Shown: piece after piece, positions 20,574 to 55,191 of the stretch | Position numbering within the stretch: the stretch's first letter is position 1 | How the letters are laid out: each line of letters begins with the position of its first letter | Source: a phage | Reading direction: 5' to 3' (one strand) | DNA length: 64,000 nucleotides | NCBI GenBank assembly: GCA_020619395.1 | Contig: GCA_020619395.1_4860.1 | Notes under the pieces: model-generated | The model's database searches: none | Told to the model about the DNA's origin: nothing | The model's input: only the letters and a program-made list of their open reading frames with translations | Translations under genes and position numbers: made by a program

Positions 20574-20574
20574 G

Positions 20575-36034: not shown

Positions 36035-38212
36035 TTACGATAACGGTATCGTTGGCCGCACCCACGGTTTAGGGGCAGATTTGGTATACGGATTACATTC
36101 CATCATTTTACCGAGATACGCATCGTAATACACGAAGCGATCGACATAGAACCTCTCCACCGGTGTACTACTGGTAGCCGATTTCACCCGGTTGCGTTCC
36201 ACAGCGAGGCCAATCACCCCGGTAGGCGCGGGTTTTAGGGTGAACATTACCGCACGGTTGTAACGCCAAGTGTCGTGCACAATATCAAACTCCGATACAC
36301 TGTGTGCCATGATACCAAACAATGTGGTGGCTGGTAAGTTGGCTACAGCATCGCCGTATGGTGTTCCCACCAAACCGCCGGGTATGTTTTGCTTTTTGAA
36401 CAGCGTACCTGAAATAATCGTACCTAAGAACTCCACAACTACAGGTTTGGTTGGGTCGGTGACTTTATCTATCCCATCCGCACTGGCCAATCGGTTGGCA
36501 TCTAAATCTGCGAGGTAGTCGAGGAACTCTTGGTACTCGTCGGTGACATTCGGTTTCACCGTTCCGACGGATACCCAGTTGACGATACTTTTATTCCCAC
36601 CGACGGCTTCGCCTGCCATCCCAGGGCGAGTCCATGACATCCCGTCTTCACGACCGTAGACATAGACCGGCGAGCCGGTAGCCGGGGTGTTCCATTGCTC
36701 GAACGCTGTATATCGTCCCGGCTGGCCCCAATCGCCACCAGGACCGCCATAGTAGCGACTCTGGTAGCCGGTAAATTGTGCGACGACTAACTGGGTAGCA
36801 CCGCCTTTGTCACGGGACCCAGCTAAGCCGTTACGGTTATTGGTGCCGCTGGGTACCGCCGCGCCTGGCCCGAGAGGCGCACCACCAGCTCCACCGATCT
36901 TGGTGGTGCTAAACGCATAGTAGTCGCCCCCACCCCCACCTCCGGCGATGGTGCCGTAGTTTTCGATGGTGACTTTGCCGCGGAAGGCATCGGTAATGTG
37001 GATTGCGTCAGCTCCGTCTGCTGATGTGTTCGCAGGCAGAGAATAGACCATACCCGAACCACCACGACCAAGAATGGTTCCCCGGTTAACGAAGTTCCAA
37101 ACCACCTCGCCAATTTGCGGCAATTCGTCGATAACGAACGTCGGTTTCAGGTTGCTGTCGCGATAAACGAAAGCCCCCGCATCTACGGTCACGTTAACAA
37201 ACAAACGCCCGCACGCCGCATGGTTGGTCAACGTCGTGGCCCAGTAGCTGTCCGAAACTTGCGACGTAGTTGTGTAGTTCAGGTTAAGGGTTTGCTCGTT
37301 ATCTTGATAGCGTGCCACATTCAACGTGGCACTGCCCATGACTTTGTACGAACCCTCCACAGGTGCCAATTGCACTTGTCTTGGCCACTCGCCTGCCAGG
37401 TCCTCTACGGGAGCAATTTCGTTTACATCAAAAACACTCCGAATGCCGAGTGTCTCGATGGCCAGAGCATCATGCAGGCTACCGGTGAAATCATCCGGGA
37501 CGTATGTGGTTTTGCCTGCATATGTCTCGAGTTTGTTACGTGAAAAGAACACATACTTCGTTCCAAACATCCCGCTCCCCGGTCTAGCGGTCAAAGCCAC
37601 GACGCTGTTATACGCAGAGGTTTGGCCTATATCCTCCGGGGACATCGGGGCGCTGACATCGACTTTATCAAGATCCACGATCCGTTTGGTTGCATTAGAG
37701 TAGAAGTTAATCCACTGCTGTTTATTCGCAGCCTTTAGCGTGAGAATGATGTTGGTAACAGTGTAGACGGTGTTGATATCCACGTCACCGTTTATCACAT
37801 CTAGCGTTTGGCTGCCGTACCAGACAAGACTTGTCTGTTTCGCCTGGAACGTGATGCGCGCAGCATTGTTTGTCCAAGTGATAGGCAGGTCTTCAAAGTC
37901 GTCGGTTAAAAAGGTAATCCCCAGTAAAGTGTCTAAATGCGGCAACAGTTCGTGAATGGATGCACAAGTGGGAATGGCATCCAACTTAACCTTAGCGAAA
38001 TAATCAGCAATATTTTGCTTCGTGACTTGGGCCGTAATTTGACCGTAATTTGAATACCCCGGACCCCCTGTCAGTGTGACGTCTAGGGTTTTTTCGTCAC
38101 GATGCGCCACGGACACCAGGCGTACGTTAGCGGGGTCTACTGCTTTGGCGACCGCGTTTTTACGGTTGAGCGACCGAATCACGGTCGCCACTAAATCGGG
38201 AGTGTAGGACAT
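36035..38212 (-). CDS. paralogue-family structural protein (725 aa), Gly-rich C-terminal half
   Basis: N-terminal domain weakly similar to array paralogues; GGGGGDYYAF..GGPGGDWGQPG region; C-terminal YTKSAPKPW motif shared with 439 aa neighbour. Confidence 0.6.
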   Translation of the reverse strand: MSYTPDLVATVIRSLNRKNAVAKAVDPANVRLVSVAHRDEKTLDVTLTGGPGYSNYGQITAQVTKQNIADYFAKVKLDAIPTCASIHELLPHLDTLLGITFLTDDFEDLPITWTNNAARITFQAKQTSLVWYGSQTLDVINGDVDINTVYTVTNIILTLKAANKQQWINFYSNATKRIVDLDKVDVSAPMSPEDIGQTSAYNSVVALTARPGSGMFGTKYVFFSRNKLETYAGKTTYVPDDFTGSLHDALAIETLGIRSVFDVNEIAPVEDLAGEWPRQVQLAPVEGSYKVMGSATLNVARYQDNEQTLNLNYTTTSQVSDSYWATTLTNHAACGRLFVNVTVDAGAFVYRDSNLKPTFVIDELPQIGEVVWNFVNRGTILGRGGSGMVYSLPANTSADGADAIHITDAFRGKVTIENYGTIAGGGGGGDYYAFSTTKIGGAGGAPLGPGAAVPSGTNNRNGLAGSRDKGGATQLVVAQFTGYQSRYYGGPGGDWGQPGRYTAFEQWNTPATGSPVYVYGREDGMSWTRPGMAGEAVGGNKSIVNWVSVGTVKPNVTDEYQEFLDYLADLDANRLASADGIDKVTDPTKPVVVEFLGTIISGTLFKKQNIPGGLVGTPYGDAVANLPATTLFGIMAHSVSEFDIVHDTWRYNRAVMFTLKPAPTGVIGLAVERNRVKSATSSTPVERFYVDRFVYYDAYLGKMMECNPYTKSAPKPWVRPTIPLS

Positions 38213-38226
38213 GGTGACACCTTAGT

Positions 38227-39546
38227 CTATAGCGGTGGATACCAAGGGACCGGGGCGGTTTTGCTATATGGACTGTAGACCATATAGCCGCCTTTGCTTG
38301 GGTCGTAATAGATGAAATAGTTACAGTAATTCGAGTAAATGCTCGTCATTTGTTTGGATTGGTATCCGTTACGGTATAGTCCCTGGTAAGTAATAGCTGA
38401 TGTCGTGGTGGTGTAAGCAGTGTGGTACAGTACCCGACGCCGGTTAGCAATACTTTCTTGGAACATTTCTTCGGTCGGAAACGCGTGTTGCATCAGCCGT
38501 CGAATACTCCCGGTACAGTATCGAGTGCCATACGGGGAACCCGTTAAATCATCCGCAGTTTCAGGCGATTCTGCCCGAGTCAACACGTACTCGTTTTGAT
38601 ACAACGTGACGCTCATCGAATTTGGGCTGGTTTCCCGGAAACTCATGTAACGCGCATAACGTTCGACGTCCTCTTCCTGCGCCAAATAGGCCACGTTATT
38701 TTTCGGACCAAAGTGCAAGAAGAACGGACGGCGGAGATTACCCATATCCTCAGGTGGCGTCAACTTCACGCAGTAATTGTACTCCCCACGCATATCAGGG
38801 TCTAAGCCTGGGTTGTTATTGCGTGTAGCGACATACCCATAGAGGTCATACGGGTTATCAGTAGCAGCATTACCGATAGTGAACGGGATGCCCGACCATG
38901 CCGACAGCGCCGCGATGAACTGGGTCATGTACGAGTTACTGTTTAGTCGCAGCGGGGTACCCATCGGGATATTGATTATCTGTTGGGTGTACATGCTCCA
39001 GTCGAGTCGATAGACCGTGCTGTAAACATCCATGGGTTCCCAAGCTCCGGTTTCGGTGGTGTGGTACAAGTCGGCAAAGCTGGGCTCTTCACGAATAAAG
39101 CTAATAGGAATGTGACCCGTGAATGCGGGGTTATCCGATTTAATCGCCACCGTCCGATCGCCCGTTGCCACAGTGATCATTGCAAACTGGCTGTCAGGAT
39201 ACGTTAAATCGTCAGCAGTAAGCACCAGCCCACAAGCTGCGGAAATCCGGTCGATGATGTCGCGGTAGGACGTCGCCCGATAAGGTACTTTAACCGGTAC
39301 GCTGACGCCTTTAAAATACTGCGAAAGGTTTAAGCGGTCGTAGTAGATGTCCATCTTACCGCTGTAACCGCCACCCTGTAATCCGTTTACCACTATACGG
39401 CTGTTGCGGCCATCGCGCAAGGCATTGGTTAAAGGACCTTGTAATAACGCCACGTTGGTTGCGTTGAGTGGTTTCTTGAGCTGCGGGTTATCACGATTAA
39501 TCTGATCCCAAACCAGCTGCATGACAGGTTTGTTATAGTTGATCAT
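38227..39546 (-). CDS. paralogue-family protein (439 aa)
   Basis: N-terminal ..INRDNP..RNS..IYYDRLNL domain; C-terminal YSKTAPVPWYPPL. Confidence 0.65.
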   Translation of the reverse strand: MINYNKPVMQLVWDQINRDNPQLKKPLNATNVALLQGPLTNALRDGRNSRIVVNGLQGGGYSGKMDIYYDRLNLSQYFKGVSVPVKVPYRATSYRDIIDRISAACGLVLTADDLTYPDSQFAMITVATGDRTVAIKSDNPAFTGHIPISFIREEPSFADLYHTTETGAWEPMDVYSTVYRLDWSMYTQQIINIPMGTPLRLNSNSYMTQFIAALSAWSGIPFTIGNAATDNPYDLYGYVATRNNNPGLDPDMRGEYNYCVKLTPPEDMGNLRRPFFLHFGPKNNVAYLAQEEDVERYARYMSFRETSPNSMSVTLYQNEYVLTRAESPETADDLTGSPYGTRYCTGSIRRLMQHAFPTEEMFQESIANRRRVLYHTAYTTTTSAITYQGLYRNGYQSKQMTSIYSNYCNYFIYYDPSKGGYMVYSPYSKTAPVPWYPPL

Positions 39547-39557
39547 TGCAACGTCCT

Positions 39558-39593
39558 AAAAAAAGAAAATAGGCCCTTCAGGGCCTATTTTTA
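39558..39593. terminator. bidirectional rho-independent terminator
   Basis: stem aggccc-ttca-gggcct flanked by A-run and T-run. Confidence 0.7.
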
Positions 39594-39620
39594 GCTGTTA
39601 TGGTGAAGTACGCTATCCCT

Positions 39621-39713
39621 TTAACTCCAGCTGATTCGACCTGCGTGTTGGGGATTATCCCGCTGAATGAGCCGACACAACAGCTCAAGTGCAGTGGATG
39701 AGTAAAACCCCAT
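39621..39713 (-). pseudogene. 30-codon remnant of a family-A paralogue
   Basis: MGFYSSTALELLCRLIQRDNPQHAGRISWS* aligns with the N-termini of the A paralogues (MGLYSAPELELLCQQVVRDNPELAGRIS..); intact RBS aggag; premature stop. Confidence 0.5.
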
Positions 39714-39724
39714 ATTAGCTCCTG

Positions 39725-40627
39725 TTAGCTAAGAACCAGTTCGATAACGTGGACTACCGACGCGCTATTGGTCGAAGAGGTGTACGATGGTGTGTCTGGT
39801 GAGTTGCTGCGATAGTACCAGGGGGTGGCGTTGTCATAACCGTTGGCAAACAATGTTGCGCTTGAATCGGTTGGACTACCGCCGGAGCGCGCCGGTAAGT
39901 CGCCAAAACGTCTTACGACGCCCGCGTAGCGGAACAAGCTTGCGAACGTGTTGTGCCACTCGCCATCTTGAAAATAACCACCGCTGCTTAGGTAGGTGCT
40001 GTGCCCATAACTGTAGTCTCCGAGTCGAGGCAAACGTACCACATACTCGTAACCGTCTTTATTAAATGTCCGACGCTGGTTAGTGGTAGCGACGCCCCGT
40101 GGCGGGAAACCGTAGTCATCTGTTCCCCAGGCCAGACCTTGCTGGTATTGTTCGTTCCACGTCGTCCCTAAACGGGTCACCGTGTCAGGAATGAACAGAA
40201 TGCGTCCTTTGAAAACGAATTTATGGAACAATGTTGGAGCTTGGTTCCAGGCATTAAAGCCAATTAAACCATTCAGCTCGGCATGGTTAAGAATAAATTC
40301 TTCGTTTGTCAGTGTGCCAAAGTAGCCACGATGCCAATCGCCACGAATAAGTTCCTGTGGGCCGGGCCCTGTCATTGGAAAGTCGCCCTGTACAATCGGC
40401 AGCCCCATAACCTTTTCAGTGCCCTTTACCGCCACGATGCGATATTGATACGTTTTATACGCCTCGGTGGTCGTGTCCTCGTACGTCGTTGTGTTACCTG
40501 GTAGTGTTACAATAGGTTCCCCCGGTGCTACTGGGTTAACACTTTGTCTGGGGTTGTCGTAACGATAGATTTCAATGGAATCTAAAGTCTGACCTGGCTG
40601 TTGTTTCCAGTTTAAGATAATCGACAT
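39725..40627 (-). CDS. family-B paralogue 1 (300 aa)
   Basis: N-terminal Ig/FN3-like (..IEIYR..TY.Y.IVAVK) then TGPGPQ..GDWH.GYFG domain. Confidence 0.65.
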   Translation of the reverse strand: MSIILNWKQQPGQTLDSIEIYRYDNPRQSVNPVAPGEPIVTLPGNTTTYEDTTTEAYKTYQYRIVAVKGTEKVMGLPIVQGDFPMTGPGPQELIRGDWHRGYFGTLTNEEFILNHAELNGLIGFNAWNQAPTLFHKFVFKGRILFIPDTVTRLGTTWNEQYQQGLAWGTDDYGFPPRGVATTNQRRTFNKDGYEYVVRLPRLGDYSYGHSTYLSSGGYFQDGEWHNTFASLFRYAGVVRRFGDLPARSGGSPTDSSATLFANGYDNATPWYYRSNSPDTPSYTSSTNSASVVHVIELVLS

Positions 40628-40630
40628 GTT

Positions 40631-41629
40631 TTACTCCACTAACTCGATAACGAATGCGTACAAACCGACCTTCTCAGCACTGTCAATTAACGTAACTTGG
40701 GAGAGGTTACGTTTCGACGTATTGGTTATGCTTGAATCGATAGGCGCAGACCCGCGAACCAGAACTAATCCCGATTCAGGATCACGTTCTTGGCACAAGA
40801 AACCTTTGCCTTGGTAAGCGCTACCGCTCCCATAAATGGACGCTGGACTAATATTAGTCCAGTTAGGGAGCATTTGTTTGTTAGGGATACAATCTCCGAA
40901 CGGATAAACAAAATCGTTATATTCGCAGCGACCATATTCCAAGTCATCATGGTCTGCGTTTCGCAACGATTCATCCAATGTCATTACTGTCGGTTCGTCC
41001 CCGTCGGTTAAACCGCGCAGCAATCGCATCCGATAGGTGTCGCCTTGCCATTCAAACAACCCACTCTGGTCAACACCTGCCAAATCCCCACGTCCGTTAT
41101 CAGGACCAAATCCATCAACACCGTACACAAGCCCCGCGTTATAAATGTCATTCCACGAGTAAAGTGTAGAGTTAAATCGTCCGCCGCTGTTCATCATGTA
41201 GTAAACTTTACCATGTCGATAAAACTTGTTCATGATTAGCGTGCCCGTGCCCGATATCCCTGTTAATGCACGAAAGCCTGCAGGCAACGCGTCATAGGTC
41301 ATCTGTTCTTCGAACGGCAACTGCCCCAGAAACGCCAAGTCGTCAGTATCGGAATAGTTAATCTGGTCGACGCCACCCACACCACGACGGTTTTTAATGA
41401 CAATGGATTTTTGTGGACTACCTACGGTACGGCCGTTAACAGTTACTGTTAAAAGATACCAGTAACGGGTGTTAAGAATAACGGTTTCGTCCGTCCATTC
41501 CGTTTCGCCATTACTTAAAGTTGCAATAGGGGCTGGTAATGCGGCTGTATTTATTTTAGCCGTGCCCCGATAAATGTTAACAATTGAACCTGCCGGATTT
41601 TCATTTTTCCAGCGTAGTGTGAATGCCAT
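40631..41629 (-). CDS. family-C paralogue 1 (332 aa)
   Basis: MAFTLRWKN..VNIYRGT N-terminus; paralogous to 43996..44985 and 47441..48439. Confidence 0.65.
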   Translation of the reverse strand: MAFTLRWKNENPAGSIVNIYRGTAKINTAALPAPIATLSNGETEWTDETVILNTRYWYLLTVTVNGRTVGSPQKSIVIKNRRGVGGVDQINYSDTDDLAFLGQLPFEEQMTYDALPAGFRALTGISGTGTLIMNKFYRHGKVYYMMNSGGRFNSTLYSWNDIYNAGLVYGVDGFGPDNGRGDLAGVDQSGLFEWQGDTYRMRLLRGLTDGDEPTVMTLDESLRNADHDDLEYGRCEYNDFVYPFGDCIPNKQMLPNWTNISPASIYGSGSAYQGKGFLCQERDPESGLVLVRGSAPIDSSITNTSKRNLSQVTLIDSAEKVGLYAFVIELVE

Positions 41630-41639
41630 CTGTTACTCC

Positions 41640-43082
41640 TTAGAAGCCGTTCAACTCACCGTTCGCGGTTGCTAAATCTGTTTTAAGTGGAGGTTCTGCC
41701 TGAGTAGGCGGTAGTGGACGCGGTGCGTCGACGTGTGGTTCAAGTACAACCATCGGCCTAACTGTACCTACGCTGTTCGACACTGTCGATAACGGCAGCG
41801 CAGTATCGACGTTTGGTTCACCCACCACAATCGGGCTGATAGGTTCTTCCACCTGTTCCGCAGTTGTTGCTAGAGGTCTCGGCGCATCTGTTGTCGCAAC
41901 CTCGACTGCAAGAGGGCGAATGCTATCAGGTTGTGGTGATGGTACATTAGGAATAACCCTAACGCGCCACACAACATCCCCTTCCACATCAGCTAAAGAT
42001 AAGACGATGTCGTCCTTATTGATTTCCTCTAAAACAGGCCACCAGTAAGTGGTATCTGTAAGGGTTACCCATTCAACTGAGCCACCGCGCATATTGCAAC
42101 GTTGTACTTTAACAGGGTTACCCCCGGTTAACAGTTGTTGCGTGAAGAAGACGGTGGTTCTGGTTAACGTGGTGTCATTTGCCCAGTCGCCGCCCGTAGA
42201 ACCGTCACCGAGTTGTGAAATAAGCCACAACGGTGTGGCCTTTGATAAATCAGGGCTAACCGGAACGGAGACGCGGTAATAATGCGTCTTGTTATTCTCA
42301 GTTTTCGTGACAATCAAAGCCTGGTCAACAGGTTCGATACCGTCTGGATACGGACCAGTGTCACCTGTACCGAAAATGGCACCCGCTTGATAAAGGGCCG
42401 TCCAGGTTGCTGTTAACGTTCCGGTAGTCGGTAGATAAACAATCTTACCATCCTTGAAAAATTTCAACCATTCGAAAGTCATTTTCGTTGGGGCAACATC
42501 AGGACGAATTAGGTTGTTTAGTTCAGCAAAGGTAAATAACTCTTGCTGAGAAACGTGGCCGAAGTATCCGTTTGTGCTGTCCCCTGCCAACAAATATTTA
42601 TTGCCTGGCCCAGAATCTGGATAGTAGCCCACGGCTTCATTCAAATAATCGACCGGGATATAGCCGCGATAGCATACGCTATTATACGCGGTTAAATTAA
42701 TACGTGTTGGCGTTGCCAGCGATTTGATAGGCGCGTCTACCGACTGTACACTGCTATCAGATAACCAAACACCGTATAAATCGCGTAGAGCTGGGAGAAG
42801 ATCCCGCACGGTCTTGGCCGTTTGTGGTACGTAGACGCGCGGAGCTATTTTAAATAGATCTGATAATGTTAAACGGTCGTAATAAACCGTGCACTCCCCA
42901 GAGAAACCTTTACCGGGTTTACCTACCAACGTAATTACCGTGTTACGACCATTCTTAGTGGTCTCGGCAGGAATACCCCTCACCCCAATCGAATCAGCGC
43001 TGATTCTTCCTGCGAGTTCAGGGTTATCCCTTACGACTTGTTGGCAGAGCAATTCCAGTTCGGGTGCGCTATACAATCCCAT
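41640..43082 (-). CDS. family-A paralogue 1 (480 aa)
   Basis: N-domain (RDNP..RNT..VYYDRLTL), SGPG..GYFG..ELF domain, C-terminal NGELNGF; RBS aggag. Confidence 0.65.
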   Translation of the reverse strand: MGLYSAPELELLCQQVVRDNPELAGRISADSIGVRGIPAETTKNGRNTVITLVGKPGKGFSGECTVYYDRLTLSDLFKIAPRVYVPQTAKTVRDLLPALRDLYGVWLSDSSVQSVDAPIKSLATPTRINLTAYNSVCYRGYIPVDYLNEAVGYYPDSGPGNKYLLAGDSTNGYFGHVSQQELFTFAELNNLIRPDVAPTKMTFEWLKFFKDGKIVYLPTTGTLTATWTALYQAGAIFGTGDTGPYPDGIEPVDQALIVTKTENNKTHYYRVSVPVSPDLSKATPLWLISQLGDGSTGGDWANDTTLTRTTVFFTQQLLTGGNPVKVQRCNMRGGSVEWVTLTDTTYWWPVLEEINKDDIVLSLADVEGDVVWRVRVIPNVPSPQPDSIRPLAVEVATTDAPRPLATTAEQVEEPISPIVVGEPNVDTALPLSTVSNSVGTVRPMVVLEPHVDAPRPLPPTQAEPPLKTDLATANGELNGF

Positions 43083-43093
43083 GAAGTCTCCTG

Positions 43094-43993
43094 TTAAGGC
43101 AGAACGAGTTCAAGTACCGCAATGGAGCGTATTGTAGTGGTACCGTAGTTACTCCATGCCGGCGACTCAGGGTAAGGTGGACGGTTGTACCACTGACTGG
43201 ACGTGTTATTCATAGCCGCAAAGAATGCAGATTGTTGGGCAGTAACCGAATCGATTGAACCGACCGGAAGGTCGTCAAAGCGCGGAAACTGCCCACTGTA
43301 GTTGTACAGGCGCGCGAAGGTGTTAAACCACTCACCGTCGAGATACAACTCAGTGTTACCGCTTCCAACGTAAGACGTCCAGTATTTGTAGTCGAACAAA
43401 TACGGCAAGCGCACCACGTATTCGTAACCGTTCTTCGCCACCGTGCGGCGTTGGTTACGTGCAGTAGCCCAGCCCGGTACATATCCATTGCCATCCTGGC
43501 CGTACATCATCCCCTGGTTATAAATGAACTGCGGGCTAGCGTTTATTATCGAGTTATCGGACATAAACAGAATACGGTTTTTGTAAATGAATTTATGCCA
43601 GGCACCAACGGCGGAACTGAACATATTCACCACGAGGCCGTTCAGTTCCGTGTTAGTGAATAACTCTGCTGGCGTTACTGTTCCAAAGTATCCAGCGTGC
43701 CAGTCGCCGTATAACAGTTTCTGGGGGCCAGGCCCGGTGTCTAAAAAGAACCCTTGGGCGGTAGGGGTGTTGAAGACACGCTCACCGTCTTTAACCGCAG
43801 CTATCCAATAACGGTAAGTGGTGTTGTTTTCCACAGCGTTGTCTTCGTACGATGTAGCGTCACCCGGAAGGGTTGCCAGAGGCGTTCCCGGTGCATTAAC
43901 ATCAATTGTGGCGTTGCCCGGCGTCTTGCGATAGATTTCGATGTTATCGAGCGCCTGTGGCTTCCGTTGTGCAAAGTGTAATGTAATAGGCAT
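43094..43993 (-). CDS. family-B paralogue 2 (~300 aa)
   Basis: ORF runs to 44029; ATG at 43993 (MPITLHFAQ..) has RBS gagga and abuts upstream stop. Confidence 0.65.
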   Translation of the reverse strand: MPITLHFAQRKPQALDNIEIYRKTPGNATIDVNAPGTPLATLPGDATSYEDNAVENNTTYRYWIAAVKDGERVFNTPTAQGFFLDTGPGPQKLLYGDWHAGYFGTVTPAELFTNTELNGLVVNMFSSAVGAWHKFIYKNRILFMSDNSIINASPQFIYNQGMMYGQDGNGYVPGWATARNQRRTVAKNGYEYVVRLPYLFDYKYWTSYVGSGNTELYLDGEWFNTFARLYNYSGQFPRFDDLPVGSIDSVTAQQSAFFAAMNNTSSQWYNRPPYPESPAWSNYGTTTIRSIAVLELVLP

Positions 43994-43995
43994 GA

Positions 43996-44985
43996 TTAAT
44001 CCTCGATAAGCTCGATTACTGGAATCCAAATACCGCCCACGGTCGCACCAGGGACATGTTGTATACGCTGGAGGTTATCCACGGTATCAGTGGAATCCGC
44101 CGCCGCCAATCCGCGCGTCAGCCCCAACTTACGTTCTGGGTCAAACTCCTGACAATGCGCCCCACGGCCTGCCACCAGCGATCCATTTCCGAATATGCTG
44201 GAGTTCGACCACTTTATCAGGGACATCACTTTTTTCTTTTCTGGGAACCAGCTACTTATCCCATAGATGAGTCGGTTGTATTCGCTATCGGCAGTATACG
44301 GTGACGCGTCATGGAGTTTACCGTCCCACTGTGCATCGAGTGTCATGACCGGGCTTTCACTGTCGAGTGTTAAACCGCGCAGCAGGCGCATCCGATAGCG
44401 GTCACCCAACCACGTAAACTCCCCAGCCTGGTCAACGTCAGGTAAATCGCCATGACCGCCTTCCGGACCAGGTCCCGCCACACCGTACAGCAAACCCGCG
44501 TTATAAATCGCATCACGGCTATACAGCGTGTTGCCGTTCACACGAAGACCACTAAACAGATACAGAATTTTACCGTCTAGCTGGAACTTCATCAAGCCCG
44601 GCTTAACAGTTGGGTCGTATCCAGAAAGGGCCACAAACCCTGGCGGATAATCACCCGCGCTAGGTAATTCACCGTACGCCACGTACCCGTAATACGCAAA
44701 GCGGTCATCACCGTACTGTGGAGCCACGATGCCGATACCGCGACGGTTCTGAATTAGAATTGATTTCTGCGGACTGAACAGTGTCCGACTTCCCACTGTC
44801 ACGGTGGTCATGTAGTAATACGTTGTCCCCAGTATCGCTGTTCGGTCAGTATACTCAGTTTCCCCGTTAGTGAACGTTGCCAGGGGTTCAGGTAATGCCG
44901 TACGCACCAGAGGTTTGGTGTCGCGGTACAGCTTCACGGTCGAAGCCCCAGGGTTATTGTTCGTCCAACGAATTGTAAAAGCCAT
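43996..44985 (-). CDS. family-C paralogue 2 (329 aa)
   Basis: MAFTIRWTN..VKLYRDT; AGPGPEGGHGDLP motif. Confidence 0.65.
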   Translation of the reverse strand: MAFTIRWTNNNPGASTVKLYRDTKPLVRTALPEPLATFTNGETEYTDRTAILGTTYYYMTTVTVGSRTLFSPQKSILIQNRRGIGIVAPQYGDDRFAYYGYVAYGELPSAGDYPPGFVALSGYDPTVKPGLMKFQLDGKILYLFSGLRVNGNTLYSRDAIYNAGLLYGVAGPGPEGGHGDLPDVDQAGEFTWLGDRYRMRLLRGLTLDSESPVMTLDAQWDGKLHDASPYTADSEYNRLIYGISSWFPEKKKVMSLIKWSNSSIFGNGSLVAGRGAHCQEFDPERKLGLTRGLAAADSTDTVDNLQRIQHVPGATVGGIWIPVIELIED

Positions 44986-44997
44986 TGTCGTTACCTC

Positions 44998-46494
44998 TTA
45001 TTGGAATCCATCCAACTCACCGTTAGTATCGCCCAGAGTAATTTTTGAAGGTTGGGCGATTTGGTCAGTCGTGAGAATAATCGGTCTAATCTTAACGCTA
45101 GCCATGCCTGTTACCGCGACGGAATATGCACGTTCATCATTGTCCGTCGTGGCAAGCAGAGGACGTGGTGAGTCTGATGACGCTTCCCGCAGCCAGGCAG
45201 GGGTGGCAGTTTCGGTGTTGTCGGTGTTGAAAACTAACGGACGTGGATTCGCTGCGGCGGAGGTTTCCGTAATAGGCACCACACGAAGCGATTCATTTTG
45301 GTCGATGTCCGTCAGAGTAACCACGGACGGTGCCCATGTTAGCTCTGCACCTTCGTCAATCAACGGCACAGGTTCATTGGCAACATCAAACATCTCCAGG
45401 ATTGGCCAAAAGCCAGAAGAGGTGTAGATGTAGGTGTTTGAACGATAGCTCGCGCTGATAGACTGGTAATACGCTTGGTCGGCACCGAACTGGTGTCGTA
45501 ACCACACGTAATCCAGGAAGTTAGCATCAGTCGTGCTAAGAGTTCCCCACTCCCCATATACGTTCACCGACCCCAATTTGCTGGTCAGTGACAGGATAGA
45601 GGTGATTGACGGCGGTTTACTCCAATCAGGCGCGGCGGCGTTCTCGGTGTAATACGGGATAGACATTCTGAAATAATGCGTTCCTTCATCATCCCGTTTT
45701 ACCATGTATTTCAACTGTTCAACATCGACAGGTGTGTAAGTCGACTTCGGGCGAGGTCCTGCGTCTCCGGAATCAAATATTGCACCCTTGTTGTACAGGT
45801 CTGCCCAGGTAACGTTGCAAATCGCACGGGTCGGAACAAACACTACCGCCCCATTCAGAAAGAATTTGAGCCACTTGATAGCGTAGCGGTTAGGCCAGTT
45901 GGTGCCGTTATAAAGGGCATACACCATTTCATCAGATGTGAATAACTCTTCCGCGCTTACCAGCCCAAAGAATCCGTATAACTCATTACCAGCCATTAAT
46001 CCTTTTGGCCCAGGACCCGACTTCGGATACATCGCAATCGGTTCGTAAACATAGGTCATCTTGCATGACCCGGTATAGCACAAGGAGTTAGCGTGCGCCG
46101 TCAGAGTTACAGTTTCCGGCGTAGCGTATTTCATTAATGCAACGTTTGGACTGGTGATATCACTCGCGGTTAAGTTCAACCCGTTCAATTCATTGAACGC
46201 CGGTAACGCTTCCGCATGGGTTTGTGCGCTACGTGGAATACTCACCATATTCGGGCCAGACTTAAATAGACTGGCCAGATTCAACCGGTCGTAATATACC
46301 GTTATTTCCCCAGCAAATCCTTTACCGGGTTTTCCTACCAACGTAATCTGAGTGTTTCGTCCGTTAACGTTTTTCGCAACAGGAACACCCCTGACCCCAA
46401 TGGAGTCAGGGGTGATTTTTCCTGCTAAACCGGGATTGTCACGCACAATTTGTTGGCAGAGCAGTTCCATTGAAGGTTCTGTATACAACCCCAT
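44998..46494 (-). CDS. family-A paralogue 2 (498 aa)
   Basis: MGLYTEPSMELLCQQIVRDNP..; C-terminal TNGELDGFQ. Confidence 0.65.
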   Translation of the reverse strand: MGLYTEPSMELLCQQIVRDNPGLAGKITPDSIGVRGVPVAKNVNGRNTQITLVGKPGKGFAGEITVYYDRLNLASLFKSGPNMVSIPRSAQTHAEALPAFNELNGLNLTASDITSPNVALMKYATPETVTLTAHANSLCYTGSCKMTYVYEPIAMYPKSGPGPKGLMAGNELYGFFGLVSAEELFTSDEMVYALYNGTNWPNRYAIKWLKFFLNGAVVFVPTRAICNVTWADLYNKGAIFDSGDAGPRPKSTYTPVDVEQLKYMVKRDDEGTHYFRMSIPYYTENAAAPDWSKPPSITSILSLTSKLGSVNVYGEWGTLSTTDANFLDYVWLRHQFGADQAYYQSISASYRSNTYIYTSSGFWPILEMFDVANEPVPLIDEGAELTWAPSVVTLTDIDQNESLRVVPITETSAAANPRPLVFNTDNTETATPAWLREASSDSPRPLLATTDNDERAYSVAVTGMASVKIRPIILTTDQIAQPSKITLGDTNGELDGFQ

Positions 46495-46507
46495 GGTATT
46501 TACTCCA

Positions 46508-47431
46508 TTACGGTAAGACTAATTCAAAAGCAAAGAATATCGTGGCCGAGTTCCCGACACCTGCGGTGTTACTAATCCCCATAGGCACGGTGCCATACGC
46601 ATAAGCGAATATGTTGTTGCTCCACAAAGGAGCTAATACAGCGGCACCTGACTCATTCGGCTGCGCAGTCGCGCCTTGTCTTTCAAGTGAGTCAATCGCA
46701 CCAAGACCGAGGGCTGCGTACTGTGCACCGACAGGATACAAACGGCCCATTGTGTTTCGCCATTCACCGTTGTTGTAATCCTGTCCTGAGAGTGCCGCGT
46801 CGTACGGGACTGCGTAAGGTAATCGGATACGGTACGTACGACCATCCTTCGTGACCTTACAATCTTGTTTAGTCGCCGTGGCTCCCTGCGGAACAATACT
46901 TCCGACATCATCGGTCCCGTACATCATGCCGTACTGATACGCCATTTGTACCGAGTTGCTTTTCGAATGCATCGTCGCTGGGAAGAAGACAATTCGCCCA
47001 CGGAAAATAAACTTGTGCCATTCCTGAGGGTCGTAAGTAAACATGTTTCCCTGCTGCGCGGTTAACATGAGTTTTAACTCGGCAGTATTAAAGAACTCGG
47101 TATTAGATACCGTACCGAAATAGCCTGACGCCCAATCGCCACGCAAAATAGTTTGTGGCCCCGGTCCAGTGTCCGGATAGAACCCTTGCGTAATCGGATT
47201 GCCGATAAGTCGTTCACTATCTTTCACAGCAGCTACCCAGTAACGATAAGTTGTATTCTTCGTCAGGGTATCGATATTATCTACGAACTCTACCGCGCTA
47301 CCGGATAAGGTGGCGTGGGGTGTACCTGGGTTGTAAACGTCGATTGTTGCGTTCCATCCTTCCTTGCGGTAGATTTCAATCGCGGTAAGACCTTTGCTGG
47401 CTTGGGACGGCCAGCTTAACCGTATAGTCAT
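46508..47431 (-). CDS. family-B paralogue 3 (307 aa)
   Basis: MTIRLSWP..IEIYRK..DTGPGPQT..GDWASGYFG. Confidence 0.65.
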   Translation of the reverse strand: MTIRLSWPSQASKGLTAIEIYRKEGWNATIDVYNPGTPHATLSGSAVEFVDNIDTLTKNTTYRYWVAAVKDSERLIGNPITQGFYPDTGPGPQTILRGDWASGYFGTVSNTEFFNTAELKLMLTAQQGNMFTYDPQEWHKFIFRGRIVFFPATMHSKSNSVQMAYQYGMMYGTDDVGSIVPQGATATKQDCKVTKDGRTYRIRLPYAVPYDAALSGQDYNNGEWRNTMGRLYPVGAQYAALGLGAIDSLERQGATAQPNESGAAVLAPLWSNNIFAYAYGTVPMGISNTAGVGNSATIFFAFELVLP

Positions 47432-47440
47432 GACTGCCCC

Positions 47441-48439
47441 TTACTCGACCAGTTCAAAGATAGGGTAGTAGCGCCCTTTCGTGGTGGGTGATAAATAGTT
47501 TATACGCTGAATCGTGGATACGGGTGTTCCACCGGCATTGTTAAAAATACCACGATGGAGCACACGGTCTTCCGCGGTATCGTGTTCCATACAGAGAACA
47601 CCACCGCCGAAATACTGTGCCAAGGTTCCCAAAGTACCTTGCCCCAGATAAGTATAACCGATTGTTGCCCAGTTAGCCCAACGCTGTTTCTTCGGCACCT
47701 CGTTAACCATCGTGTAAAGTAAATCGTTATACTCACACGGGTTGGTTAGAGAAGCGATTTCATCATGGGTTTTCCCATTATAGTCAGCTACGAAAGGATA
47801 CGCAGGAGGCTCGCTAGACATCGTCAGGCCGCGAGGAAGACGCATGATGTACGTATCCCCTTTGTGGACTATCTTAGCGTCTTGTGGAGTGGCCGGTAGC
47901 GTTCCATGGCCGTTCTCTGGACCAGCATCGCCCGTACCATAGACTAAACCAGCTTGATAGAGGGAAGCCCAGTCCACAGGCGTATTCGGGAACTGCGACG
48001 TGCTAGATAGCATGTAATAGATCTTCCCGTTTCGGGTAAATTTATACAACGCCACACGATCGGTTAGTAGGTTAGGGAACATCGCCAAAAATGCAGGTGG
48101 CATTTGCGACGGAAGCCACTGTTCGTCGTAAGGAACCGCACCCATAAACCCTAAACGGTCGTCACCGTTTAGAATAGTCATTGGACCGATCCCACGCTTT
48201 ATCTCAATGGTGTATTTCTGGCTAGACGATGCCACTGTTTTACCGTTGGCGGTTACCGTCAGAAGGTAATAATAGGTTGCGCCTGGTGTGGCGGTGGTAT
48301 CACGCCATTCTGTCTCGCCATTTGAGAGCGTTGCAATCGGTTCAGGCAAAGCGCTTGGTGTGATATCTTTAACATCACGGTAGATTTTTACTACCGTAGG
48401 GATTACGTTTGGATTTTTCCAACGCAAAGTAAAAGACAT
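47441..48439 (-). CDS. family-C paralogue 3 (332 aa)
   Basis: MSFTLRWKN..VKIYRDV. Confidence 0.65.
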   Translation of the reverse strand: MSFTLRWKNPNVIPTVVKIYRDVKDITPSALPEPIATLSNGETEWRDTTATPGATYYYLLTVTANGKTVASSSQKYTIEIKRGIGPMTILNGDDRLGFMGAVPYDEQWLPSQMPPAFLAMFPNLLTDRVALYKFTRNGKIYYMLSSTSQFPNTPVDWASLYQAGLVYGTGDAGPENGHGTLPATPQDAKIVHKGDTYIMRLPRGLTMSSEPPAYPFVADYNGKTHDEIASLTNPCEYNDLLYTMVNEVPKKQRWANWATIGYTYLGQGTLGTLAQYFGGGVLCMEHDTAEDRVLHRGIFNNAGGTPVSTIQRINYLSPTTKGRYYPIFELVE

Positions 48440-48450
48440 AGATGATACCT

Positions 48451-49863
48451 CTACTTAAAGCCGTCCAGTTCACCGTTAAGAGACGTTAACGTTGTCTTGT
48501 CAGGGGGCGTATACATTTCAGCGGTAGCCGCAATAGGTTGGAAGTCGACTGTCTTCGGCAGCATTAAAGCAGGCGGATGCAGTGCGAAACTGTTTTCTGA
48601 AGTAACAACTACCGGTTCGAAATCGGTAGTATCCGGATTACCGAGCACTAACGGCTTGAGACTAAATGTGTTTTCTGCGGACACGCTGCACGGTTGGAGA
48701 CTGTAATCTGCCGTACCGTGGATATCTTCTAAACCCAAGGTAACTGTGGACTTATCCACCAACTCCAGCACCGGGAACCAGTAGTAGTTGCCCGCACTCG
48801 ATGATTTTTCTAAGTTTGTCCAACTTGCTCCAGACAACGTCGCCATGCGATGATTGGCGACGTTGGTCTTCAGTGTATCTTTCAATAAACAGAACAGCGT
48901 CCAGTAACTGTTAATCGGTTTGTCCCACGTTCCATTATACAGAAAGTTGAACATCTCAAACTCACTACCTGCTAACTCAGCGGCAGTTGGGGTGCCGCTG
49001 ACGTATGGGTCTTTCCCGGCACTAGGTAGACGAACGCGGAAGTAAAACCTTTTGTTGTCTGCGCCTGTAAAGCTAATGATGCGTCCCTGGTTAACGGGCG
49101 TCGCCGCAGGGTATTTACCATTATCGTCTGTTCCGTAAACGAGTCCGTTTGTATATAACGTATTCCAGGAGATGGAGCTAGCGACAGGACTGATCGGAAG
49201 GTAAATAACCCTACCCTGGTAAAAGAACTTGTACCAACCTTCGGCACCAGAATGTACCGGTGGTAACGCACCGGCCGATATAGTGGCATTAAGAAGTTGA
49301 GAGTGTGTAAACAACTCTGCAGTTCTGGTTGTTCCGAAATAACCCGCGATAGTGTTACCTTGCAGCAACGTTTTAGGGCCAGGTCCAGAATCGGGGTAAA
49401 TTGCACCACTCGGGACGGTATAACGTATCGTTAAGCTGCCTGTAAACGCAGGGCAATTGCCTGAGATATTTAATTTCAACGTCTGCGGCGAAACGCTCGG
49501 TTTAGGTAAACTTGCGTCAGGTGACTGCAAATCAGAAGCAACTAATGTAAGCCCCAATGCGTCGTTTATTGCAGGTAGCGCGTCTCGTACCGTTAAGACT
49601 GTATCTTTGATAGCCACAGTCGGCACAAAATTAAATAAAGTGGCCAGGTTAATCCGGTCGTAGTACACGGTAACATTACCTTGTACACCTGTCCCTGGAT
49701 ACCCGGTGAAAACAGCTTTGGTGTTACGTTGGTTTAACGTAACTGAAGTTGGGCCACTGGTTAAAGCAGCGATAGCCGGCGTCAGCTTAACAACTAAATC
49801 AGGGTTATCCCGATTGACTTGGTCGTATACAAGCAGTGCCGACTCCTTCGAGTAAAATAGCAT
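48451..49863 (-). CDS. family-A paralogue 3 (470 aa)
   Basis: MLFYSKESALLVYDQVNRDNP..; C-terminal LNGELDGFK. Confidence 0.65.
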   Translation of the reverse strand: MLFYSKESALLVYDQVNRDNPDLVVKLTPAIAALTSGPTSVTLNQRNTKAVFTGYPGTGVQGNVTVYYDRINLATLFNFVPTVAIKDTVLTVRDALPAINDALGLTLVASDLQSPDASLPKPSVSPQTLKLNISGNCPAFTGSLTIRYTVPSGAIYPDSGPGPKTLLQGNTIAGYFGTTRTAELFTHSQLLNATISAGALPPVHSGAEGWYKFFYQGRVIYLPISPVASSISWNTLYTNGLVYGTDDNGKYPAATPVNQGRIISFTGADNKRFYFRVRLPSAGKDPYVSGTPTAAELAGSEFEMFNFLYNGTWDKPINSYWTLFCLLKDTLKTNVANHRMATLSGASWTNLEKSSSAGNYYWFPVLELVDKSTVTLGLEDIHGTADYSLQPCSVSAENTFSLKPLVLGNPDTTDFEPVVVTSENSFALHPPALMLPKTVDFQPIAATAEMYTPPDKTTLTSLNGELDGFK

Positions 49864-49880
49864 AGGGACTCCGCATCGCC

Positions 49881-49907
49881 AAAAGAGGGGGGCTCCGAAG
49901 AGCCCCT
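49881..49907 (-). terminator. hairpin, weak terminator
   Basis: stem ggggctc-cgaa-gagcccc; only a short T-run on minus strand. Confidence 0.4.
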
Positions 49908-49911
49908 ACAC

Positions 49912-50742
49912 TTAGCTGTTATAGTGGTAGTACGCCACGCCTTTCACGCCTTCCTCATCGATACCCGTTTGGATAACCACGCGGTCGTACGATTTGTTAG
50001 CGAACTGAGCGGTGGATGTCGGCACATCCTGAACGGTGTTACTGTTCAGTGGCCCCGCGTAGTTCGGAATACCCAGGTCATCCAACACCTTACGCAAACC
50101 AGCCCACTGCGGTAGGCCAGAAGCATCTACTGTCAGTAGGTTTTTATACGCGGTAAAGTCAATACCGTACGTCAACAAATCAATACACTTCTTACCGAGA
50201 GACGGTGAAATAGGCTCTTGAATCGCATTCAAGACATCTGATTTCACCGAAGTGTCTAGTACCGGTAAACCACGGTTATAACGCAACGTCGCAGAACCGA
50301 TATAAGCCGGAGATGTCGATAGCGCTGCAATGGTCTGTGTATTGGTGTAATTTGGGGTATTGGCACCAAACAGTGAGTAGTTTTGGATATCGATTGCGGA
50401 GAAGTTTACTCCGTAAGTATCCAAGAGCACCGAAAAGGCTGAGTGGAGGTTGGGCGCGTCAAACGTGACGAACTGCGCCTGGACAGAAGGACCCCACGGC
50501 AATAACCGCGCTAAGTTCACACGGTCGTAGTAAACGGTGATTGCGTCTCGAAATCCGGAACCCTGAATACCGCGCAAGCGTGCCGACGTATTGCGGTTGT
50601 TGGAAGCTGCATTAACGGGAACCTGCGTCACTTTCTCCACGTAGCAGTTTGCCGGCGACGCTTTAATAGGTAGGTTTGGGTTATCCCGGTTAATGAGGTC
50701 AAAGACCAACTCGTTTGACGGCTTAGCATAGTTGATCATCAA
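49912..50742 (-). CDS. family-D paralogue 1 (276 aa)
   Basis: N-domain MMINYAKPSNELVFDLINRDNP..VYYDRVNL; C-terminal YYHYNS. Confidence 0.65.
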   Translation of the reverse strand: MMINYAKPSNELVFDLINRDNPNLPIKASPANCYVEKVTQVPVNAASNNRNTSARLRGIQGSGFRDAITVYYDRVNLARLLPWGPSVQAQFVTFDAPNLHSAFSVLLDTYGVNFSAIDIQNYSLFGANTPNYTNTQTIAALSTSPAYIGSATLRYNRGLPVLDTSVKSDVLNAIQEPISPSLGKKCIDLLTYGIDFTAYKNLLTVDASGLPQWAGLRKVLDDLGIPNYAGPLNSNTVQDVPTSTAQFANKSYDRVVIQTGIDEEGVKGVAYYHYNS

Positions 50743-51630
50743 TTATACCTCGCTTGGATCGTCCAGATCGTTGAACTGGAGATACAACGTTCCGACGATG
50801 GTGGTACAGGTAACAGGCAGTTTCAACACCAGCGCATACTTGTACTTCGCGTTTGTCGGCATTGCAACAGGGTCATTCAGACCAACGCTGATAACCTCCG
50901 CGCCCGCCAAACCGTAGGAAGCGGAGGTGGTCGCTACCCATGCAGTACCCGTGATATCTTTCAGCAGGTTAACCATATCCGTTAACGGCTGTCCGGACAG
51001 AATACCCGGCACGTATGCCAGCAACTCATCACGGTATTTGGTGAAGTTGTACGGGTAGGAATAAACCTCTGCAATGACCGCAGTAACGGTTTCGGAACCC
51101 ATCTGACCGTTCGGGTATTTCAGACCGGTCAGGACGTTAGTGGTGACCGCAGAGACTAACGACTCATCGCCTTTCACGACTTTAAATGTCGCCTGTCCAA
51201 CCCAACCGATAGACTCAGGATGTGCAACAACACGCACAGTTCCTTCGGTCTTATCACCGTTCCATTCGATATCTGCGTCCTGCAGGTCAGCTTCTTCCAG
51301 AACAAAACCGTAACGTTGGTTCAGTCCAGGAATGGCCGCATACAAGGTTTCGTTGGATGGGCCGATCGCCAACGTGTCACCAATCAGCACTAACAAGTCT
51401 TCGATTTTCATGCGGTTGTAGAAGACATTTTTCTTACCCGACCAGGTAGAGCCCGTTACCCCATCTGCCGTAATTTTAATTTGCGTGTTACGGTTAGTCA
51501 GCGTTTCCTTCTCCGTACCACGGATGTCCTTTGGCGAGGACCAGATGATGTCAGTCATCTTAACAGCAAGCGAGTTCTGTGCGTTCACTGCTGCCAACAG
51601 GACGTCTTTAGAAGGTTGATAAATAGCCAT
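50743..51630 (-). CDS. family-D paralogue 2 (295 aa)
   Basis: N-domain; C-terminal LYLQFND. Confidence 0.65.
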   Translation of the reverse strand: MAIYQPSKDVLLAAVNAQNSLAVKMTDIIWSSPKDIRGTEKETLTNRNTQIKITADGVTGSTWSGKKNVFYNRMKIEDLLVLIGDTLAIGPSNETLYAAIPGLNQRYGFVLEEADLQDADIEWNGDKTEGTVRVVAHPESIGWVGQATFKVVKGDESLVSAVTTNVLTGLKYPNGQMGSETVTAVIAEVYSYPYNFTKYRDELLAYVPGILSGQPLTDMVNLLKDITGTAWVATTSASYGLAGAEVISVGLNDPVAMPTNAKYKYALVLKLPVTCTTIVGTLYLQFNDLDDPSEV

Positions 51631-51640
51631 TCGCTAATTC

Positions 51641-52480
51641 CTAGTTGTTGTAGTGCAACATACACTCGCCGATTACTTTCGGGTCGTTCTGAATGCCGGT
51701 AATCAGCAATACGTTATCGTACGCTTTATTGGCGGTCGCCAACTCACTCGTTTTGTAGCGGGTAATTGTGCAGTTCGTCGGATCAAACGACGGTACCCCA
51801 CGTGCGACCAATGTGGCCATCAGATTGGACGTGTAACCCAAATCAAAGTTACTTCCTACGTCCATTCGCCCGTTCTTAAACGAGGCCATAACCTGCACTT
51901 CATCAGTAAAGTCTTCCCCGTACGTCAAGAAGCCCATGTATTTCTTACCAGTGCTTGCTGCTGCAGGGTGGTTCAAAGCCGACAAGATGTCGTTTACCAC
52001 GAGGTCTTCGAGACTATTCTTACCCCGGATAGACATAAAGGTGATGCTGCCAGTGTATTGGATACAGCTAGCGTTAATGCGCATCGTGTTGTTTACGTTC
52101 AGATAAACGTATTGTTCTGGGATATCGTCTGCAACCAGGTTTAATCCATAACGACCGTTCAGGTTCTGCGCAAACGCAGTACGTTTCGACTCCACGTTCA
52201 ACCAACCGTAGGCATTCGGTGCAGTTACCTGAGGTGTCATGTTCTTAAATAAGTCGTTCAGCGACAAGCGCTTATAACGGAACGTCTGAGGACCGATATA
52301 GCCACGACCTTGACGACCACGAATGATAATCTCAGTATTGGCACCGCTTGCTGTCGGTGTGATTGCTTTCGGCGTACCGATGATAGCATTGTCTAAACCC
52401 ATCGGTAGAACAGCATCCGGGTTTTCGGCATTAATCGCATCGTACAGATATTGTCGCTGAGACAGACTATATAAAGCCAT
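51641..52480 (-). CDS. family-D paralogue 3 (~279 aa)
   Basis: ATG at 52480 (MALYSLSQ..) with RBS gaggagg; C-terminal MLHYNN. Confidence 0.65.
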   Translation of the reverse strand: MALYSLSQRQYLYDAINAENPDAVLPMGLDNAIIGTPKAITPTASGANTEIIIRGRQGRGYIGPQTFRYKRLSLNDLFKNMTPQVTAPNAYGWLNVESKRTAFAQNLNGRYGLNLVADDIPEQYVYLNVNNTMRINASCIQYTGSITFMSIRGKNSLEDLVVNDILSALNHPAAASTGKKYMGFLTYGEDFTDEVQVMASFKNGRMDVGSNFDLGYTSNLMATLVARGVPSFDPTNCTITRYKTSELATANKAYDNVLLITGIQNDPKVIGECMLHYNN

Positions 52481-52516
52481 AATAGCCTCCTCGGCCAAAA
52501 AAGAAAGGAGTAGCCA

Positions 52517-52537
52517 GGAGGAGGATTTCCTCCTCCC
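52517..52537 (-). terminator. hairpin ggaggagga-ttt-tcctcctcc, terminator or attenuator
   Basis: 9 bp stem inside the array; T-run follows 12 nt later on minus strand. Confidence 0.4.
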
Positions 52538-52549
52538 AGCGAGGCCTAA

Positions 52550-53461: not shown

Positions 53462-53482
53462 TCTTACTTCCTTTACTCAGGA

Positions 53483-54328: not shown

Positions 54329-54338
54329 GTCAAAATCC

Positions 54339-55181: not shown

Positions 55182-55191
55182 CTATACCCTC

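Follow-up and report, generated by a model that had tools for sequence, protein, structure and literature searches.

Three diverged copies of a three-gene FN3/lectin-like cassette as candidate adhesin modules of the DUF7941 protein system in an SPN3US-type jumbo phage

Why does a jumbo phage carry nine consecutive genes that read as one three-gene set repeated three times? The window analysed here is a 64,000-nucleotide stretch of phage DNA (GCA_020619395.1, contig GCA_020619395.1_4860.1), in which nine minus-strand open reading frames (ORFs) fill positions 39725-49863 exactly. This 10.1 kb region is 98-99% identical in DNA to Salmonella phage SPN3US and its relatives and has the same gene order; 38 phage records match it, 17 of them over more than 80% of its length. 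Judged by this match, the window is that of an SPN3US-type jumbo phage of the genus Seoulvirus, Chimalliviridae. The nine ORFs are SPN3US gp145-gp153, which Lee et al. labelled as 'putative virion structural protein 12-19' and one hypothetical protein. We propose, with a probability of about 0.5, that the nine genes supply minor, exchangeable adhesin-like binding modules to the DUF7941 filament system of chimalliviruses. The genes, in the order of transcription, are as follows.

48451-49863, minus strand: A1 (gp145), 470 residues; DUF7941 N-domain (1-150), domain X (about 155-375) and disordered repeat tail (378-470) ending ...KTTLTSLNGELDGFK
47441-48439, minus strand: C1 (gp146), 332 residues; FN3 (1-83) and domain X (82-332)
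46508-47431, minus strand: B1 (gp147), 307 residues; FN3 (1-84) and domain X (85-307); AlphaFold2 (AF2) predicted local distance difference test score (pLDDT) 91.6
44998-46494, minus strand: A2 (gp148), 498 residues; DUF7941 N-domain, domain X and PRPL-type 26-residue repeat tail, ending ...KITLGDTNGELDGFQ
43996-44985, minus strand: C2 (gp149), 329 residues; FN3 and domain X
43094-43993, minus strand: B2 (gp150), 299 residues from the ATG at 43993; FN3 and domain X
41640-43082, minus strand: A3 (gp151), 480 residues; DUF7941 N-domain, domain X and repeat tail, ending ...KTDLATANGELNGF
40631-41629, minus strand: C3 (gp152), 332 residues; FN3 and domain X
39725-40627, minus strand: B3 (gp153), 300 residues; FN3 and domain X

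Each unit is transcribed in the order A, C, B, with A proteins of 470-498 residues, C proteins of 329-332 and B proteins of 299-307, and the genes inside a unit are separated by 2-13 nt. The three units are collinear and measure 3,356, 3,401 and 3,358 bp (units 1, 2 and 3), in agreement with an earlier note on this DNA that had recognised three consecutive units of about 3.35 kb with A, C and B in this order. The start of B2 is most likely the ATG at 43993 given in RefSeq rather than the TTG at 44029 chosen by the ORF finder because the alignment of the B N-termini favours that ATG. Two terminator-like hairpins occupy the only two sizeable intergenic gaps, 5' of A1 and 3' of B3.

49889-49906, minus strand: terminator-like hairpin between gp144 and A1, at the upstream edge of the nine-gene block
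39566-39591, minus strand: terminator-like hairpin after B3, at the downstream edge of the block

A sigma-70 promoter scan returned fewer matches than shuffled sequence and is uninformative, given that the phage has its own RNA polymerases.

Are the three units copies of one another? By BLASTP, the paralogues share 30-38% identity for A, 38-47% for C and 37-46% for B, with E values of 1e-54 to 1e-94 that lie far beyond chance. Pairwise alignment thus finds all three units significantly similar and upholds the homology that the earlier note had claimed; its estimate that roughly half of the residues are identical was too high, as the observed range is 30-47%. For A and C, the closest pair is units 2 and 3, whose DNA similarity is still collinear, at 72-75% in patches with a copy spacing of 3,362-3,412 bp. 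The DNA similarity between units 1 and 2 is weaker, and none is found between units 1 and 3. Because units 2 and 3 retain collinear DNA similarity, it follows that the block was duplicated as a whole. By their sequences, the nine genes go back to one three-gene cassette, now present in three copies that are ancient and diverged.

What do the A proteins consist of? All three match the Pfam family DUF7941 (PF25613), with scores of 110 (A1), 105 (A2) and 79 bits (A3) against a gathering cut-off of 27, and the match is limited to profile positions 1-153 of 276 (residues 1-150 of A). The A proteins lack DUF7941's linker and C-terminal globular domain and have domain X and a repeat tail in their place. 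A single-chain prediction of A1 has a mean pLDDT of 75.8, with 80-93 in the globular parts and below 40 in the tail (378-470), which is predicted to be disordered. In a structure comparison of this model, the fold of the N-domain matches PhiKZ gp127 (PDB 9XQD); a PDB sequence search with the A-family profile did not recover gp127. The tails are built from 26-residue tandem repeats, each made up of a pair of 13-residue halves whose core is x-P-hydrophobic3, and the number of repeats is polymorphic among near-identical phages.

48454-48732, minus strand: A1 tail, 26-residue repeats with halves such as ENSFALHPPALML-PKTVDFQPIAATA; one extra repeat in phage JN03
45001-45360, minus strand: A2 tail, 26-residue repeats; one repeat fewer in phage SPLA5c

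The tails of A1-A3 end in K-T-x-L-x3-N-G-E-L-x-G-F, which is kept in most A homologues. The terminal peptide KTDLSTTNGELDGF occurs four times in the six-frame translation of the window, always at a C-terminus (A1, A2, A3 and gp160).

The B and C proteins are related to A through domain X only. They consist of FN3 and domain X and fall together in a single PHROG family, phrog_1062; no Pfam model, DUF7941 included, matches them. Residues 1-84 of B1 form a seven-strand beta-sandwich that matches FN3 structures in the AF2 model, and the corresponding domain of C1 spans residues 1-83, so that B and C do begin with the immunoglobulin (Ig)/FN3-like segment noticed earlier. Structure comparison of the models places domain X close to solved C-type-lectin-like (CLec/FGE-like) domains, and searches of Pfam (Lectin_C and FGE-sulfatase) and of PDB sequences gave no match to it. 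The candidate that domain X is a diverged DUF7941 linker and C-domain was rejected, as hhalign of the B/C family against gp138-144 gave a probability of 0.1. A profile of the nine X domains searched against 1.84 billion representatives, with relatives clustered at 50% identity, retrieved 1,810 clusters at E<=1e-3 and 1,153 at E<=1e-10. By this search, domain X is a large family (>1,800 clusters) that has no Pfam model. Most of these relatives are FN3-X proteins of about 300 residues. Long multi-X proteins also bear Laminin_G_3, Kelch propellers, bacterial Ig, SWM_repeat or DUF285; one of them is named a BspA-family surface protein, and several lie on contigs of 240-275 kb. The predicted architectures of these long proteins are of the surface-adhesin type.

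The proteins do not vary evenly along their length. Among B1 orthologues, which are 87-99% identical, 39 of 82 sites vary at the C-terminal end. In FN3, 6 of 84 do, and in the rest of the protein about 15%. B2, C2 and B3 follow the same C-terminal trend.

46511-46756, minus strand: residues 226-307 of B1, the hypervariable C-terminal end of domain X

Across six Seoulvirus genomes, variable sites in B and C amount to 20% of the last 82 residues, 9% of the rest of domain X and 5% of FN3. In the A proteins of the same genomes, they amount to 14% of the tails and 3-4% of the globular domains, and the neighbouring simple DUF7941 genes are 96-100% identical. Diversification of the diversity-generating retroelement (DGR) type was considered and rejected for the window, as its 64 kb hold no template/variable repeat pair. 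Unlike DGR systems, the window has neither a template repeat nor a reverse transcriptase, and the diversity therefore appears to arise via ordinary mutation, recombination and cassette exchange. A published positive-selection table for SPFM phages contains many virion structural proteins, listed by ortholog cluster numbers that cannot be mapped to gp145-153 (PMC6614189).

Is the cassette also the unit of change between phages? Relatives were scanned with hidden Markov models (HMMs) built for the four domain types. The array opens with seven to nine simple DUF7941 genes, after which come n copies of A-C-B, always in that order. The comparison of copy number among related phages that the earlier note had suggested yields one to four copies, and the type of cassette varies as well.

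n = 1: Cronobacter phage CR5 and one IMG/VR genome
n = 2: EC001, Lh1B, pSal-SNUABM-04, Wellington, Derbicus and two IMG/VR genomes
n = 3: SPN3US, Caitlin, Huxley, Phobos, phiEaH2 and one IMG/VR genome
n = 4: pEa_SNUABM_4 and probably ChrisDB

In Noxifer and other distant chimalliviruses, the unit is kept as x-F-F, with a lead gene that has no DUF7941 domain. For the window's unit 1, the orthologue is unit 1 of the Erwinia phages (39-69% identity); for its unit 3, it is unit 2 of pEa_SNUABM_4 (44-61%). With such orthologous units and at least five cassette types, the expansion is therefore old and was followed by differential loss. In Escherichia coli phage EC001, a precise deletion of 3,456 bp between two short microhomologies has removed unit 3 and left the ribosome-binding site and the first six codons of A3.

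39608-39616: left microhomology GTACGCTAT of the EC001 deletion
43064-43072: right microhomology GTGCGCTAT, within codons 4-7 of A3

Phage SPLA5c has a C2/C3 hybrid that derives from a crossover between units 2 and 3. In JN03, unit 3, gp154 and gp155 are exchanged for the cassette type that stands last in the arrays of Erwinia phages (55-64% identity). From the EC001 deletion, the SPLA5c crossover and the JN03 exchange, all of which occurred within the species, it follows that the phages can do without a whole cassette and that change takes place cassette by cassette. In some SPFM records (LR535901-LR535913), the region is matched as about 40 short pieces that cover 25% of it at 99% identity, and the proteins are truncated or scrambled; these records probably reflect assembly or consensus problems, not biology.

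The nine genes stand inside a longer array of DUF7941 genes that reaches from 36035 to 55989, with gp160 lying apart. The DUF7941 N-domain of A recurs upstream in gp138-144, downstream in gp154 and gp155, and partly in gp160.

49912-55989, minus strand: seven 'simple' DUF7941 genes, gp144-gp138, 265-303 residues; N-domain, linker and C-domain; homologues of PhiKZ gp127
38227-39546, minus strand: gp154, 439 residues; DUF7941 N-domain and other C-terminal domains
36035-38212, minus strand: gp155, 725 residues; two DUF7941 N-domain-like segments and a glycine-rich Pfam GP38 tail-fibre adhesin domain (373-553)
32616-33143, minus strand: gp160, 175 residues, an abundant virion protein; partial DUF7941 N-domain and a C-terminus as in A1-A3, ...KTDLSTTNGELDGFV

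A profile of the simple DUF7941 proteins matches PhiKZ gp127 (E 8.6e-23), and these proteins are likely filament subunits. The adhesin domain of gp155 is of the T4 Gp38 type (Pfam GP38, E 5.7e-18), and gp155 also has a match (E 2.7e-19) to phrog_2056, which is labelled 'tail fiber protein; host specificity'. Despite this domain, the available proteomic data assign gp155 to the head, with a ratio of 0.89 in tailless particles (PMC10052503). Two side observations concern this array. In SPLA5c, a 91-residue ORF between B3 and gp154 (locus L012, 9714-9989) is 53% identical to the C-terminus of gp144 and looks like the remnant of a simple DUF7941 gene; the window has 178 nt of non-coding DNA there (39547-39724). 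In Erskinevirus and Machinavirus, a gene annotated as an exopolysaccharide (EPS) depolymerase or pectate lyase lies directly upstream of the DUF7941 array (4513-6330 of locus L006, phiEaH2; 4454-6259 of locus L008, pSal-SNUABM-04). A fusion of this depolymerase with DUF7941 was considered for both phages and rejected, since the N-domain HMM finds no match in it and the relation is one of adjacency only.

Where in the virion are the nine proteins located? According to the accessible parts of the reports from the Thomas laboratory, they belong to 'Paralog family B' of SPN3US virion proteins (gp83, gp138-154, gp160/161 and gp237), which has 17-21 members and is possibly the largest paralogue family in any phage (PMC5105663, PMC5694885). 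The paralogy itself was therefore already known. The same reports place the family in the head because its members were found in tailless particles. As tabulated for SPN3US, every one of the nine products is detected in virions by mass spectrometry, as the earlier note had anticipated for structural proteins (PMC10052503 Table S2). In tailless heads of the tail-tube amber mutant 255(am107), the same table gives gp145-153 at 1.06-1.67 of the wild-type normalised counts and the capsid protein at 1.39, whereas the proteins of the sheath, tube, baseplate and fibres are down to 0-0.07. Since the nine proteins stay with the heads of two tailless mutants, they are not conventional tail-fibre adhesins in SPN3US. 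The receptor-binding character that the earlier note had put forward is partly supported, by the FN3/lectin-like modules, the variable patch, the differences in cassette number and type among relatives and the Gp38-type neighbour, but not in the form of a tail fibre. Counts per kDa from the same table, scaled to 1,560 capsid proteins, provide a crude estimate of copy number for A/C/B of about 20/20/26 in unit 1, 57/73/28 in unit 2 and 28/59/34 in unit 3, compared with about 375 for gp141 and 520 for gp160.

How could such proteins act as binding modules? The A protein would be the anchoring subunit, via its DUF7941 domain and/or its C-terminal peptide, and would plug into filaments made mainly of the abundant DUF7941 proteins gp141, gp143 and gp160, by analogy with Goslar gp22. 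The C and B proteins would be held by A, possibly in a 1:1:1 complex that presents three lectin-like domains. A heteromeric A-C-B complex is suggested because the three-gene unit is strict and the abundances are broadly similar. The lectin-like domains may bind host surface structures, either glycans or the flagellum, and each cassette would then give a different specificity. For SPN3US, we favour filaments that associate externally with the head, an attachment that would agree both with the proteomics of this phage and with the domain types, the variable patch and the Gp38 domain, which speak against an internal role. In its full form, this picture makes each cassette a heteromeric adhesin, with the X domains of A, C and B mounted on A, and the head-attached DUF7941 filaments an 'adhesin cloud' that catches flagella or glycans before the tail engages. 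We put the full form forward tentatively, at odds well short of even. Head-borne fibres that catch flagella have a precedent in flagellotropic phages such as 7-7-1 and phiCbK. The receptor of SPN3US is the flagellum (PMC11428620).

Several observations weigh against the proposal that the cassettes supply adhesin-like modules to DUF7941 filaments. In the 255(am107) tailless particles, gp138-155 are all kept at 0.9-1.67 of wild type according to the available data (PMC10052503), and the gp64 tailless mutant leads to the same head assignment for Paralog family B in the accessible reports (PMC5105663, PMC5694885). Such retention with tailless heads contradicts baseplate anchoring in SPN3US and fits an internal location equally well. 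The notion of filaments and a 'fiber cloud' was put forward in a preprint and depends largely on AlphaFold models and one negative-stain experiment (10.64898/2026.04.21.720040). That C and B bind A is a step that we infer. PhiPA3 has four tandem FN3-X genes with no A adjoining them. By eye, the terminal peptide of A resembles the DUF7941 linker motif (L-x3-V-T-x3-L-x-G-L-x-Y-P), and it was considered a candidate copy of that motif; hhalign against gp138-144 gave a probability of 0.1, which leaves this candidate unsupported.

Could the nine products, along with the rest of Paralog family B, instead be internal head proteins that are enclosed in the capsid and perhaps enter the host together with the DNA? 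Chimallivirus capsids enclose many internal proteins, and the SPN3US authors, in the accessible part of their work, raised 'Head ejection?' for the abundant gp141 and gp160. Moreover, the reported purification has the nine proteins co-purifying with DNA-filled tailless heads through step and buoyant caesium chloride (CsCl) gradients at the wild-type level. However, the FN3 and C-type-lectin-like folds, the Gp38 domain in a family member and the occurrence of domain X beside surface-protein modules argue for an extracellular role, and internal proteins seldom have a hypervariable surface patch or turn over as cassettes. No Paralog family B member appears among the SPN3US prohead-protease substrates in the accessible lists. 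In PhiKZ, a homologue lies on the exterior of the particle, at the baseplate (PMC13250141), and DUF7941 proteins are not among the named PhiKZ injected proteins (10.1101/2024.03.24.586471). We therefore regard an internal location as unlikely.

The baseplate is the other location suggested by published work. In PhiKZ, the N-domain of gp127, to which A1 is structurally matched, was docked where the gp139 band ends in each lobe of the star, on the outer periphery of the baseplate (PMC13250141). The Goslar preprint, which names the DUF7941 family, reports that purified gp22 forms head-to-tail filaments in vitro, describes DUF7941 members with carbohydrate-binding, hydrolase or leucine-rich repeat (LRR) domains and proposes a baseplate-anchored 'fiber cloud' for host recognition (10.64898/2026.04.21.720040). 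If the same arrangement applied to SPN3US, the presence of the family with tailless heads would reflect co-purified, self-assembled filaments that stick to the heads. Chance co-purification is hard to credit, however, when 18 family members are kept at 0.9-1.67 while more than 93% of every baseplate protein is lost, and protein filaments on their own would not be expected to settle at the buoyant density of DNA-filled heads in a gradient. Furthermore, the PhiKZ placement is that of an AlphaFold model docked into a 4.4-4.7 Å map, with six copies only per virion (PMC13250141). A baseplate-anchored cloud is thus also doubtful for SPN3US.

Capsid decoration without host binding was an option listed in the earlier note. 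FN3 proteins would stabilise or shield the capsid, as Hoc and pb10 do, and the paralogues would occupy different capsomer positions. Ig-like and FN3 domains are frequent in decoration proteins, and the available proteomics associates the nine products with the head (PMC10052503). By our arithmetic, however, each is present in tens of copies, which is far below the number of capsomer sites of a T=27 shell. The cassettes are also dispensable, their lectin-like patch is hypervariable, and they are linked to a filament-forming domain and a Gp38 adhesin. The high-resolution capsid models of PhiKZ and Goslar are not reported to hold DUF7941 proteins. Taken together, these points make pure decoration improbable. 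Finally, enzymes that degrade host polysaccharide are a very remote prospect. In Proteus phage 7 and Salmonella phage MET_P1_082_240, GenBank gives the name 'glycosyl hydrolase' to six of the nine genes, but neither the Pfam and PDB-sequence searches nor the fold comparison matched them to a glycoside hydrolase, and the folds are FN3 and lectin-like.

How does the cassette compare with known systems? The genes are those of SPN3US Paralog family B, described as head-assigned virion proteins (Thomas et al. 2016; Ali et al. 2017; Scheuch et al. 2023); in the accessible parts of these papers, the family is one PSI-BLAST group, and the A-C-B cassette, the separate domain types, the copy-number variation and the adhesin-like character are not described. 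Relative to the DUF7941 proteins gp22/gp23 of Goslar and gp126/gp127 of PhiKZ, A differs in lacking the DUF7941 C-domain. Its effector domain has a lectin-like fold that the Goslar preprint does not name, and it adds a repeat tail and a terminal peptide. A is always followed by two FN3-X genes without DUF7941, and its proteomic location in SPN3US is the head, not the baseplate. Receptor binders with a C-type-lectin fold, such as Bordetella phage Mtd, the DGR variable proteins TvpA/TaqVP, the tips of invasin and intimin, and Bdellovibrio Bd2740, resemble domain X, which is not a member of these groups at the sequence level. T4-type Gp38 shares its domain with the neighbouring family member gp155, whereas T4 Hoc and known head-fibre proteins have no homology to A, B or C. 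As far as the searchable literature shows, the cassette organisation, the folds, the repeat tails, the shared terminal peptide, the hypervariable patch and the natural structural variants are new. The literature on 'hairy' jumbo phages yielded nothing specific to Paralog family B.

Other features of the window are recorded here in their own right. Three consecutive, very large ORFs (1237, 1376 and 1742 residues) lie on the plus strand at 12717-25852, and their sizes fit SPN3US gp170, gp169 and gp168. Those three are baseplate/fibre proteins of 'Paralog family C' and relatives of PhiKZ gp131, so that the window may hold a second paralogue family, as judged by size alone. Beside the array, on the plus strand at 28213-31358, are counterparts of two 'radical SAM' proteins annotated in JN03, SPLA5c, CR5 and phiEaH2; radical SAM genes are an unusual neighbour for virion genes. 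A 117-nt direct repeat (76% identity) is found at 27439-27555 and 27848-27964, 409 nt apart, with no large ORF there in the list of ORFs of at least 150 residues. A 43-nt AT-rich motif (TTAACTCTCACCTARGTAATATATATCTGA...) occurs at 5668-5710, 57369-57411 and 9437-9479, recurring at 84% and 63% identity, and may be a phage promoter or regulatory element.

What does the cassette mean for the biology of these phages? The function of Paralog family B, which accounts for about 20 of the 80-plus virion proteins of SPN3US, has been open since 2016. Two recent lines of work on it conflict and do not cite each other: the proteomics of tailless mutants points to the head, whereas cryo-electron microscopy and AlphaFold models of PhiKZ and Goslar point to host-recognition filaments on the baseplate. 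SPN3US appears nowhere in the Goslar preprint (10.64898/2026.04.21.720040), and the conflict is therefore unaddressed in the searchable literature. Half of Paralog family B is organised as exchangeable three-gene FN3/lectin-like cassettes, which offer testable handles in the form of natural phages with two or three cassettes, expressible domains and a defined peptide motif. If the adhesin reading is correct, the cassettes would be targets for host-range engineering of therapeutic jumbo phages. A head-borne adhesin cloud, if true, would reconcile the SPN3US proteomics with the Goslar and PhiKZ structures and would give the largest phage paralogue family a function.

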